Shown here in pieces: positions 2,688 to 36,889 of a DNA stretch of 64,000 nucleotides. The notes under the pieces were generated by a model. The model ran no database searches. It saw only the letters and a list, made by a program, of their open reading frames with translations, and was not told the DNA's origin. The DNA is from Escherichia coli (GTDB taxonomy: Bacteria; Pseudomonadota; Gammaproteobacteria; Enterobacterales; Enterobacteriaceae): the NCBI RefSeq assembly GCF_003991155.1, contig NZ_CP031293.1; one strand, given 5' to 3'. The position numbers and the translations under genes are program-made. Each line of letters starts with the position of its first letter. Positions within the stretch are counted from its first letter, which is position 1.

Positions 2688-6040
<3,353 letters not shown>

Positions 6041-14302: not shown

Positions 14303-14389
14303 TGGTACCCGGAGCGGGACTTGAACCCGCACAGCGCGAACGCCGAGGGATTTTAAATCCCTTGTGTCTACCGATTCCACCATCCGGGC
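14303..14389 (-). tRNA. leuZ: tRNA-Leu (anticodon UAA)
   Basis: Reverse complement matches the recalled 87-nt tRNA-Leu with CCA end; anticodon loop region reads TTTAAAATCCC on plus. Confidence 0.9.
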
Positions 14390-14401
14390 TCGGGAAAAAA
14401 G

Positions 14402-14475
14402 TGGAGGCGCGTTCCGGAGTCGAACCGGACTAGACGGATTTGCAATCCGCTACATAACCGCTTTGTTAACGCGCC
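14402..14475 (-). tRNA. cysT: tRNA-Cys (anticodon GCA)
   Basis: Reverse complement matches the recalled 74-nt tRNA-Cys with CCA end. Confidence 0.9.
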
Positions 14476-14529
14476 AAATTCTTCAGGCCTTTCAGCCAGA
14501 CATCCGCTTGACGCCGATGTCTTTTAAAC

Positions 14530-14605
<76 letters not shown>

Positions 14606-30420: not shown

Positions 30421-31626
30421 ATGTCATGGCAGCAATTCAAACACGCCTGGTTGATCAAATTCTGGGCGCCCATCCCCGCGGTCATCGCGGCGGGTATTCT
30501 CTCCACTTACTACTTTGGCATCACTGGCACCTTTTGGGCTGTCACGGGTGAATTTACCCGTTGGGGCGGTCAGCTCCTGCAGCTGTTCGGCGTCCATGCT
30601 GAAGAGTGGGGTTATTTTAAAATTATCCATCTGGAAGGATCGCCATTAACCCGCATCGACGGCATGATGATCCTCGGTATGTTTGGCGGCTGCTTTGCTG
30701 CAGCGCTGTGGGCCAACAATATCAAACTACGCATGCCGCGCAGCCGTATCCGCATTATGCAGGCCATCATTGGCGGCATTATCGCTGGTTTTGGCGCGCG
30801 TCTGGCAATGGGCTGTAACCTGGCGGCGTTCTTTACCGGTATTCCTCAGTTCTCGCTGCATGCCTGGTTCTTTGCCATCGCCACTGCCATTGGTTCATGG
30901 TTTGGCGCGCGCTTTACCCTGCTGCCCATCTTCCGTATTCCCGTGAAAATGCAGAAAGTTTCTGCCGCCTCACCGCTGACGCAAAAACCGGATCAGGCGC
31001 GGCGTCGTTTTCGTCTCGGGATGCTGGTCTTTTTCGGCATGCTGGGCTGGGCGCTGCTCACGGCGATGAACCAACCAAAACTGGGGCTGGCAATGCTGTT
31101 TGGCGTCGGCTTTGGTTTACTGATTGAACGTGCGCAAATCTGCTTTACTTCGGCGTTCCGCGATATGTGGATCACCGGACGTACCCATATGGCGAAAGCA
31201 ATCATTATCGGTATGGCGGTGAGTGCCATCGGGATCTTCAGTTACGTACAGTTAGGCGTTGAACCCAAAATCATGTGGGCGGGACCAAACGCGGTAATTG
31301 GTGGTTTACTGTTTGGTTTTGGCATCGTGCTGGCAGGCGGCTGCGAAACCGGCTGGATGTACCGCGCGGTAGAAGGCCAGGTGCACTACTGGTGGGTCGG
31401 TCTGGGCAACGTGATCGGCTCAACGATTCTGGCGTATTACTGGGATGATTTCGCTCCGGCGCTGGCCACCGACTGGGACAAAATCAACCTGCTGAAAACC
31501 TTTGGCCCGATGGGTGGCCTGCTGGTGACATATTTGCTGTTGTTTACTGCGCTGATGTTGATTATCGGCTGGGAAAAACGCTTCTTCCGCCGTGCGGCAC
31601 CGCAGACTGCTAAGGAGATCGCATGA
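30421..31626 (+). CDS. yedE: Selenium-metabolism-associated membrane transporter YedE
   Basis: 401-aa polytopic membrane ORF; synteny. Confidence 0.9.
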   Translation: MSWQQFKHAWLIKFWAPIPAVIAAGILSTYYFGITGTFWAVTGEFTRWGGQLLQLFGVHAEEWGYFKIIHLEGSPLTRIDGMMILGMFGGCFAAALWANNIKLRMPRSRIRIMQAIIGGIIAGFGARLAMGCNLAAFFTGIPQFSLHAWFFAIATAIGSWFGARFTLLPIFRIPVKMQKVSAASPLTQKPDQARRRFRLGMLVFFGMLGWALLTAMNQPKLGLAMLFGVGFGLLIERAQICFTSAFRDMWITGRTHMAKAIIIGMAVSAIGIFSYVQLGVEPKIMWAGPNAVIGGLLFGFGIVLAGGCETGWMYRAVEGQVHYWWVGLGNVIGSTILAYYWDDFAPALATDWDKINLLKTFGPMGGLLVTYLLLFTALMLIIGWEKRFFRRAAPQTAKEIA

Positions 31627-31856
31627 AAAATATCGTTCCTGATTACCGCCTTGATATGGTGGGTGAACCCTGCCCTTATCCGGCAGTCGCAACTCTTGAG
31701 GCGATGCCGCAGTTAAAAAAAGGGGAAATCCTGGAAGTGGTGAGCGACTGTCCACAGTCGATCAATAATATTCCACTGGATGCGCGTAATCACGGCTATA
31801 CGGTGCTGGATATTCAGCAAGACGGGCCGACCATTCGTTATTTAATTCAGAAGTAA
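31623..31856 (+). CDS. yedF: TusA-like sulfurtransferase-fold protein YedF
   Basis: 77-aa ORF with CPYP motif; 4-nt overlap with yedE. Confidence 0.9.
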   Translation: MKNIVPDYRLDMVGEPCPYPAVATLEAMPQLKKGEILEVVSDCPQSINNIPLDARNHGYTVLDIQQDGPTIRYLIQK

Positions 31857-31962
31857 TCCCTCATTCCCGCTGTGGCCCACAGCGGGAACATCGTTGCCTC
31901 TGACACATAGATTTTACCCGCCCCCTCTCCTATTCTTTTCAGTATGATCTCAGGAGGTTTCT

Positions 31963-32631
31963 ATGTGTGGACGCTTTGCCCAATCCCAAACGCGTGAAGA
32001 TTACCTTGCGCTTCTCGCGGAAGATATTGAACGCGATATTCCCTACGATCCCGAACCCATTGGCAGATACAACGTCGCGCCGGGAACCAAAGTTCTTCTG
32101 CTCAGTGAACGTGATGAACACCTTCATCTGGATCCGGTTTTCTGGGGATATGCTCCCGGATGGTGGGATAAACCGCCGCTGATTAACGCCCGCGTAGAAA
32201 CTGCGGCCACCAGTCGTATGTTTAAACCGCTCTGGCAACATGGTCGGGCAATCTGTTTTGCCGATGGCTGGTTTGAGTGGAAAAAAGAAGGCGACAAAAA
32301 ACAGCCTTATTTTATCTATCGCGCTGATGGACAACCTGTTTTTATGGCCGCGATAGGTAGCACACCGTTTGAGCGCGGTGACGAAGCCGAAGGATTTTTA
32401 ATTGTCACTGCAGCAGCAGACCAGGGTCTGGTAGATATTCATGACCGCCGCCCGCTGGTTCTGTCGCCAGAAGCTGCACAGGAATGGATGCGGCAAGAGA
32501 TTGGCGGTAAAGAAGCATCAGAAATTGCTACCAACGGCTGTGTGCCAGCAAACCAGTTCACCTGGCACCCGGTATCGCGCGCGGTGGGTAATATCAAAAA
32601 CCAGGGAGCGGAGTTAATTCAACCGGTTTGA
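31963..32631 (+). CDS. yedK: SOS-response-associated peptidase (abasic-site DNA-protein crosslink enzyme)
   Basis: 222-aa ORF starting MCGRFAQ (catalytic Cys2), matching recalled YedK. Confidence 0.9.
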   Translation: MCGRFAQSQTREDYLALLAEDIERDIPYDPEPIGRYNVAPGTKVLLLSERDEHLHLDPVFWGYAPGWWDKPPLINARVETAATSRMFKPLWQHGRAICFADGWFEWKKEGDKKQPYFIYRADGQPVFMAAIGSTPFERGDEAEGFLIVTAAADQGLVDIHDRRPLVLSPEAAQEWMRQEIGGKEASEIATNGCVPANQFTWHPVSRAVGNIKNQGAELIQPV

Positions 32632-33035
32632 TAAGCCAGGAGACTATTGATCAATAATACTGCGTCATAAGAAATCTCTATTAGACAAAGTAGACGCTCC
32701 TTCCACATGCGCCACAAGAAACCTCTATTCCAGTGACACAATTACGCCTGATTATTTCCCTAGCCCGGAATATGAATAAAAACATCAACAAAGATTAAAT
32801 TATTCAAACGTTACTGTTGCGTCTGCGGTCGTAACAACAACCGACCTGGTGATGCGTGTTAAAGGAGACACTCTGATGTTCAGGGGGGTTATCACGTATA
32901 CGGATCGTGGATGGCAGAAAACAATCAGGATCAGGTATCCATTTTAAACCAGAAATTGAGTGAGTTTGCCCCATCCATGCCCCACGCTGTGGGATCGGAT
33001 GTAATTAAACAAGCATAGTCAACAGGTTACAAAAC

Positions 33036-33350
33036 CTACACCTGCATGGACATCACTTCCTGATACGCCGCCACCAGCTTATTACGCACCTGAATCCCCA
33101 TTTGCATTGAAACTGAGGCTTTTTGCATATCGGTCATCACATCGTTTAACGCCACGCCGGGTTCACCGAGGGTGAATTTTTCTGCCTGCGTGCGGGCGGC
33201 TGTTTGTGTATCGCTTATGCGATCGAGCGCGGCGTGCAGCTGCCCGGCAAAACTAATGGTCGGTTGTGGCAGTGATTCCTGCGCACGCGCACTCATCGCC
33301 GTAGCCTGTAACTGGCTGATAACCCCTTCAATCCCCTGTATCGCTGACAT
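33036..33350 (-). CDS. fliE: Flagellar hook-basal body protein FliE
   Basis: Start at [10 protein letters not shown] (104 aa); divergent from fliF. Confidence 0.95.
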
Positions 33351-33564
33351 TTTCGTCTCCCGAATAATTTCTGGTAGCAAAGCCTACCAGTAAGTCAATA
33401 AGACAAAGGCGCTAAATAGCAACAAAAAAACGGGTTTATTGGCGGATAGAAAAAAACGAAAGCACAAATAATGGCAGCGTCAATTTTTCGAGTTTGCTGA
33501 CCCGGGAGTGAGTCTTGTTCCACTTTGCCAATAACGCCGTCCATAATCAGCCACGAGGTGCGCG

Positions 33565-36889
<3,325 letters not shown>

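Follow-up and report, generated by a model that had tools for sequence, protein, structure and literature searches.

Integration into the 3' end of a protein-coding gene, with the displaced end replaced by a copy carried on the incoming DNA, is a well-known way for temperate elements to insert while their target gene stays whole, and is exemplified by phage 21 and e14, both of which use icd. The locus described here appears to have been visited in the same manner, at fliE, and then to have decayed almost beyond recognition. It lies in a 64,000-nucleotide stretch of E. coli DNA (the window, which means this whole stretch), where yedK and fliE are separated by only 404 bp (32632-33035), a distance given by an original prediction and on which the ORF listing and the RefSeq annotation of NZ_CP029747.1 agree. 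That prediction took the short interval for the unoccupied form of an integration site that is filled in K-12. Our main reading, to which we assign a probability of roughly 0.85, is a different one, namely that an integrated element has decayed here and that the 404-bp spacer, its most reduced allele, is a prophage scar on an attachment site at the 3' end of fliE.

The short interval could in principle be an assembly or collapse artefact, which has next to no chance of being true since 31900-33400 is 100% identical to a complete genome, that of E. coli 2016C-3878 (NZ_CP029747.1), and since the same double junction is found in 1,015 complete genomes. The gap was described as devoid of ORFs, and it does indeed lack any intact gene, but RefSeq annotates in it an integrase pseudogene (a C-terminal fragment) at 32869-33018, and a 35-aa ORF at 32911-33018 is the tail of this pseudogene. 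Rfam returned zero matches for 31000-34500 at E<=1, and a scan of 32400-33200 for consensus promoters and terminators found none. Just outside, between yedF and yedK, a near-perfect palindrome (TTCCCGCTGTGGCCCACAGCGGGAA, 31864-31888) is probably the terminator hairpin of yedF. Elsewhere in the window, matches at the Rfam gathering score correspond to the DsrA and rseX sRNAs and to three tRNA genes (45564-45650 on the minus strand, 53998-54087 on the plus strand and 14306-14605 on the minus strand), which is the usual content for this region of the chromosome.

In K-12 (NZ_CP047127.1, locus L002), yedK does not adjoin fliE, as had been correctly stated, and the interval between the two genes is 2,210 bp long, with yedL and a frameshifted pseudogene of the DUF5503/espR3 type (yedN/yedM), the N-terminal piece of this split espR3 homologue being a 116-aa ORF (5240-5590 of L002) that is, judging by its length, presumably yedM. 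When 31600-33700 of the window was compared by BLAST with this locus, three collinear pieces were obtained (see the table), the 404 bp of the gap being 94-96% identical to the collinear K-12 DNA. What is absent from the window is thus not one block but two: 603 bp (3788-4390 of L002) that hold yedL with flanks of 51 and 72 bp, and 1,212 bp (4458-5669) that hold the yedN/yedM pseudogene with flanks of ~4 and 79 bp. Between them, 67 bp of K-12-homologous DNA have been kept. Of the K-12 genes said to be missing, yedL and yedN/yedM are therefore truly absent and the equivalent of intG is retained. The suggested alignment did locate the two breakpoints, but the junction sequences hold no target duplication at the exact ends of either block, junction A displays no microhomology, and a general repeat search at the K-12 junctions produced only short repeats of the kind expected by chance. 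The pieces kept in the window are AT-rich (34-45% GC), like the island itself.

Table. Features of the yedK-fliE locus, in window coordinates; L002 is the K-12 locus.
Feature	Position	Strand	Description	Evidence
Collinear piece	31600-32690		equals L002 2695-3787	BLAST
yedK	31963-32631	+	left flank; SOS response-associated peptidase	ORF list, RefSeq annotation of identical record
Putative native spacer (B arm)	32632-32647		16 bp	only part of the gap common to emrE-type alleles on the yedK side
Remnant piece 1	32648-32690		homologous to K-12 DNA directly upstream of yedL	BLAST
R1	32666-32682	+	17-bp imperfect direct repeat, copy 1, CATAAGAAATCTCTATT	read from sequence
Junction A	32690/32691		K-12 has an extra 603 bp with yedL	BLAST, junction sequences
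Collinear piece	32691-32757		equals L002 4391-4457	BLAST, 94% identity
Remnant piece 2	32691-32757		67 bp; in K-12 between yedL and the yedN 3' end	BLAST
R2	32713-32729	+	17-bp imperfect direct repeat, copy 2, CACAAGAAACCTCTATT	read from sequence
Collinear piece	32754-33700		equals L002 5670-6603	BLAST
Junction B	~32754-32758		K-12 has an extra 1,212 bp with yedN/yedM	BLAST
Remnant piece 3	32758-32860		homologous to K-12 DNA between the yedN/yedM start and intG	without phage match
int'	32861-33018	+	3' fragment of a tyrosine-integrase gene, ~codons 383-434 of 434; K-12 intG equivalent	RefSeq pseudogene 32869-33018, tblastn, DNA match
Putative arm-type Int-binding motif	32967-32984	+	TGCCCCATCCATGCCCCA	second, weaker match in phage attP region; motif search in loci
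Stretch identical to phage attP	33019-33055		37 bp that follow the int stop codon	match to the phage stops at 33055
att core	33036-33055		last 20 nt of fliE including its stop codon	phage attP, lysogen junctions
fliE	33036-33350	-	right flank	ORF list, RefSeq annotation of identical record

The integrase remnant leads straight to the attachment site. The peptide encoded by 32869-33018 is 91.8% identical (by tblastn) to the C-terminus of the integrase encoded by Escherichia phage IdasGreatGrand (PP925829.1), which is a lambda-type tyrosine recombinase because it combines Arm-DNA-bind_2 and Phage_integrase domains. At the DNA level, the match to this phage covers 32861-33055 (186/195 positions, 95%), phage homology being absent to the left of 32861, and the remnant is a mosaic, with 8 mismatches to the phage in 32861-32898 and identity to the int gene of current prophages from 32899 onward. 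This right-hand portion (32899-33055) is identical at 156 of 157 positions to the 3' end of the IdasGreatGrand int gene and its attP, and at 157/157 to the junctions of new int and fliE in two E. coli lysogens. Since the phage match does not stop with the int stop codon (33016-33018) but extends for a further 37 bp, up to 33055 inside fliE, the phage attP includes the last 20 nt of this gene. The putative arm-type motif within int' has related copies on two P' arms, that of the phage and that of the remnant found in strain O18.

The two lysogens are informative in their own right. In UTAK-1 (L091), a complete P22-like prophage with the order fliE-int-xis...tailspike occupies ~39 kb between core copies, with an older int remnant, an intact LRR effector gene and yedK beyond it, and in 30602_1#64 (L095) a similar complete P22-like prophage of ~41 kb lies between fliE and an emrE-type remnant. 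In both, the 20-nt core CTACACCTGCATG(GA/CT)CATCA bounds the prophage on each side, the fliE-side junction being new int-core-fliE and the far junction old int'-core-P' arm (TATGACCATGTAT...), with a P' arm identical to that of the phage. Scarred sites comparable to that of the window therefore accept P22-like prophages, on an espR-only background in one lysogen and an emrE-type background in the other, and from its intact core, and from the int' scars that were already at the sites of both lysogens, we would expect the site in the window strain to be still able to do so. All the marks of a prophage scar are found together here: the 3' end of int' (33018) is next to the core, the core is identical to the phage attP, and lysogens occur at the same site. 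On the evidence of the phage attP and of the two lysogens, the integration site is the 3' end of fliE rather than the yedL or yedN junctions, and this site is free of an intact prophage in K-12 too.

The core also carries a record of past exchanges. UTAK-1 has kept GCT in its old core and has GGA in the new one, and a comparison of old and new cores at the lysogen junctions suggests that strands would be exchanged within CATCA, at the right end of the core (33051-33055). The codon for Ser101 of fliE (33046-33048) is TCC in the window, the phage and O18, and AGC in K-12, C9 and 23CRST032, and this synonymous multi-base difference marks whether the end of fliE has been supplied by a phage, the window being of the phage-supplied type. 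When this GGA/GCT polymorphism is considered together with an 11-bp indel that precedes the core, all four combinations are found among the alleles, which we take as a sign that the resident scar has repeatedly exchanged DNA with incoming phages, prophage loss by recombination between int and int' included.

The other edge of the element is visible in a second class of alleles. In about half of E. coli, the site holds emrE-ybcL-ybcM, with or without a porin gene or IS200/IS605, in the gene order of the DLP12 early region and with int towards fliE. Homology between the window and one such allele (O18, L009) ends at 32647, and in O18 and L011 a 19/20 copy of the core (CTACACCTGGATGGACATCA) comes directly after the 16 bp that follow the yedK stop codon, and is itself followed by a P' arm with ATGCCCCnnnnATGCCCCA, a motif of the same type as that in int' and on the phage P' arm. 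This yedK-side copy is the original end of fliE, displaced by integration. Since the second core lies 16 bp after yedK in emrE-type alleles, the untouched spacer between the yedK and fliE stop codons was probably ~16 bp long, and 388 of the 404 bp of the gap (32648-33035) are probably remnant DNA. A search of the window for a second core, with up to 3 mismatches allowed, returned the fliE copy only; K-12 likewise has a single copy, two being present only in O18/L011-type alleles and in the lysogens, so the yedK-side junction has been lost from both the window and K-12. A synthetic virgin site (the end of yedK, 16 bp, the core CTACACCTGSATGNNCATCA and fliE) used as a probe had no one-piece match among its best 25, all of which were in two pieces separated by a gap of ~377 bp. 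In four emrE-type alleles (L007-L009 and L011), a further stretch of integrase (residues 210-277, with ~40% identity to the phage Int) lies upstream of the equivalent of 32888 and is fused directly to the shared C-terminal 49 residues, and the int remnant of these alleles is therefore a chimera of two integrases.

These results bear directly on the idea that the window has a virgin, unoccupied site and that yedL-yedN-yedM-intG in K-12 is one inserted island. It is true that the K-12 interval is longer by 1.8 kb and that the window has neither yedL nor yedN/yedM, but (i) an integrase remnant is still in the gap, (ii) two separate blocks are missing and not one, (iii) the ends of these blocks have no flanking duplications, (iv) the att core is at the end of fliE and (v) the native boundary, as seen in emrE-type alleles, is 16 bp after yedK. 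With both int' and pieces homologous to the K-12 island (32648-32860) in the gap, it is not the unoccupied form of the site, and we give the virgin-site idea only a very slim chance. Nor does the window help to define the boundaries of the K-12 island as had been hoped, these being set instead by the phage attP, the lysogens and the emrE-type alleles.

How common the reduced allele is was determined in 5,426 complete E. coli genomes. A probe of 130 bp that spans the two junctions (at least 80% covered) found the double junction that lacks both blocks in 1,015 genomes (19%), at an identity of at least 99% in 1,014 of these. The junction between emrE and int is present in 2,618/5,426 (48%), the yedL block in 1,287, the espR/yedN block (at 80-100% identity) in 1,531 and the int'/core probe in 5,159, and a full-length int gene is next to fliE in 6 of the 5,426. 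There are three allele classes on a single int'-core anchor: emrE-type (48%), yedL/espR-type (about 30%) and minimal scar (19%). The junctions of the last class are nearly monomorphic across the 1,015 genomes, as against identities of 92-98% over the same pieces in occupied alleles. The yedL and espR blocks each occupy a median of one place per genome, any additional one being the tandem copy of O157, and neither was found with the same ends at any other locus in the 5,426 genomes; a plasmid match covers only the GNAT coding part, at 82%. When yedL and yedN (espR) DNA was compared with a phage collection, the int tail was the only match. The single core copy in both the window and K-12 and the lack of a phage match for yedL/espR speak against taking it as given that these genes and the integrase belonged to one element, which is no more than a possibility.

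Among the yedL/espR-type alleles and the minimal scar, every presence/absence combination of the two blocks is found: neither in the window, C9 and LR-48, yedL only in 23CRST032 (L003, whose junction B is that of the window), espR only in AJ6 (L004) and UTAK-1, and both in K-12 and O145, O157:H7 having a tandem yedL-espR3-yedL'-espR4 array. The repeats R1 and R2, which were spotted by eye and from overlapping BLAST segments, are identical at 15 of 17 positions and bracket junction A. The espR-only alleles (AJ6 and UTAK-1) have a single hybrid copy of this repeat, so that yedL was lost at a different place than in the window, and the hybrid suggests a loss by recombination between R1 and R2. 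The O157 array (BB24-1, L006, 12987-16885) might be thought to come from a second site-specific integration, which we rejected: it is a tandem duplication of a 1,942-bp yedL'-espR-int' unit, the copies of which are 95.1% identical and meet at a GGT microhomology within yedL, with espR3 and espR4 both intact as a result. In another yedL-only allele (2020CK-00188, L094), RefSeq has an 18-aa "cyclic lactone autoinducer peptide" directly after yedL (1447-1503), almost wholly within the 603-bp block absent from the window, which is probably a spurious call.

From these alleles, we consider it reasonably likely that the allele of the window derives from one with both yedL and espR through two deletions and by way of the yedL-only allele. 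This polarity is favoured because (i) the pieces kept are the AT-rich intergenic bits of the island, (ii) the junctions of the allele with neither block are nearly monomorphic and occupied alleles more diverse, (iii) neither block occurs elsewhere with the same ends and (iv) the yedL-only allele has junction B in common with the window. The opposite polarity, in which the 388-bp scar is older and received yedL and espR3 by two independent insertions (K-12 would then be derived and the window ancestral within its allele class), can draw on the nearly gene-sized absent blocks (the yedL and espR3 coding sequences plus the short flanks given above), on a junction A without microhomology and on the existence of all four combinations. 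We find it unlikely, since there is no target-site duplication, neither block is known with the same ends at other loci, the junction lacking both blocks is nearly monomorphic, and a gene-free stretch of 213 bp receiving two convergent genes with their own flanks is less parsimonious than decay. A last option, which we regard as a long shot, is that yedL and espR3 are precise gene-sized cassettes, gained and lost by an unrecognised site-specific mechanism that might act through R1/R2 (CAYAAGAAAYCTCTATT), in which case a small array with two slots would be seen in the window in its cassette-free form, and random deletion would not have produced it.

The search for outgroups did not root this polarity, as a YedK scan of enterobacterial contigs had no Escherichia species among its matches. 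Most enterobacterial yedK homologues are non-syntenic, and only Franconibacter pulveris has yedE-yedF-yedK...int'-fliE. In that species (L083, 10699-11257), a C-terminal fragment of an integrase belonging to the same family lies directly against the 3' end of fliE, with yedE-yedF-yedK upstream and fliF downstream, and the site has therefore been used beyond Escherichia. The enterobacterial homologues of yedK (L012-L090) are 80-87% identical to that of the window and are mostly away from yedEF or fliE; several species have two copies, some of which are a few hundred bp to a few kb from integrase fragments (L014, L025, L030, L031, L062 and L065), and yedK-like SRAP genes may thus often travel with mobile elements.

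The history that we propose for the prophage scar would run as follows. Lambda-type tyrosine integrases of P22-like and lambdoid phages would recombine the attP core with the end of fliE, the attP core supplying a replacement copy of the last 20 nt of the gene, and integration would leave int-core-fliE on one side and the old fliE end with the phage P' arm beside yedK. Nearly all of the element would later have been lost in this lineage, leaving the 16 native bp (32632-32647), ~213 bp of non-coding DNA (32648-32860) made up of the pieces that flank yedL and espR3/yedN in K-12, and the last 158 bp of int (32861-33018) before the core. The 3' part of this scar may since have been overwritten by recombination with the int gene of an incoming phage.

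What this means is modest (the allele of the window is an ordinary, common and already annotated E. coli polymorphism at a decayed prophage locus), but it corrects a natural misreading, in that a short interval at the place of a K-12 integrase pseudogene should not be taken for a clean, pre-insertion site. For work on island boundaries, the points to retain are that the last 20 nt of fliE form the attachment site, that the native spacer was probably ~16 bp and that the scarred site is still used by P22-like phages. A literature search returned no paper describing fliE as an attB and none specific to this locus or phage, and the mapping of fliE as an attB may therefore be a small new annotation, although the event itself is of a textbook kind.

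The locus can be compared with its closest known systems. The K-12 interval (yedL-yedN-yedM-intG) has the same location, flanking genes, integrase remnant and att core, and differs in possessing the 603-bp yedL and 1,212-bp yedN/yedM blocks, in having lost an 11-bp stretch and the stop codon that are both retained in the int' of the window, and in its AGC codon for Ser101 of fliE, which is TCC in the window. The emrE-ybcL-ybcM(-porin) allele, a DLP12-like defective prophage remnant, has in common with the window yedK plus 16 bp on the left (to 32647) and int' (from 32888), core and fliE on the right, but it carries ~4 kb of other cargo and retains the yedK-side core copy and P' arm that the window has lost. 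Against phages and prophages of the IdasGreatGrand type, the window keeps only ~the last 52 codons of int, without xis, a phage body or a second core copy. Finally, as for phage 21 and e14 at icd, the attP holds a copy of the 3' end of the target gene, which consequently stays intact after integration, and the end that it replaces comes to lie at the far junction, an arrangement observed in O18; the differences are that only 20 nt of fliE are replaced here, and that both the target gene and the integrase lineage are other ones.
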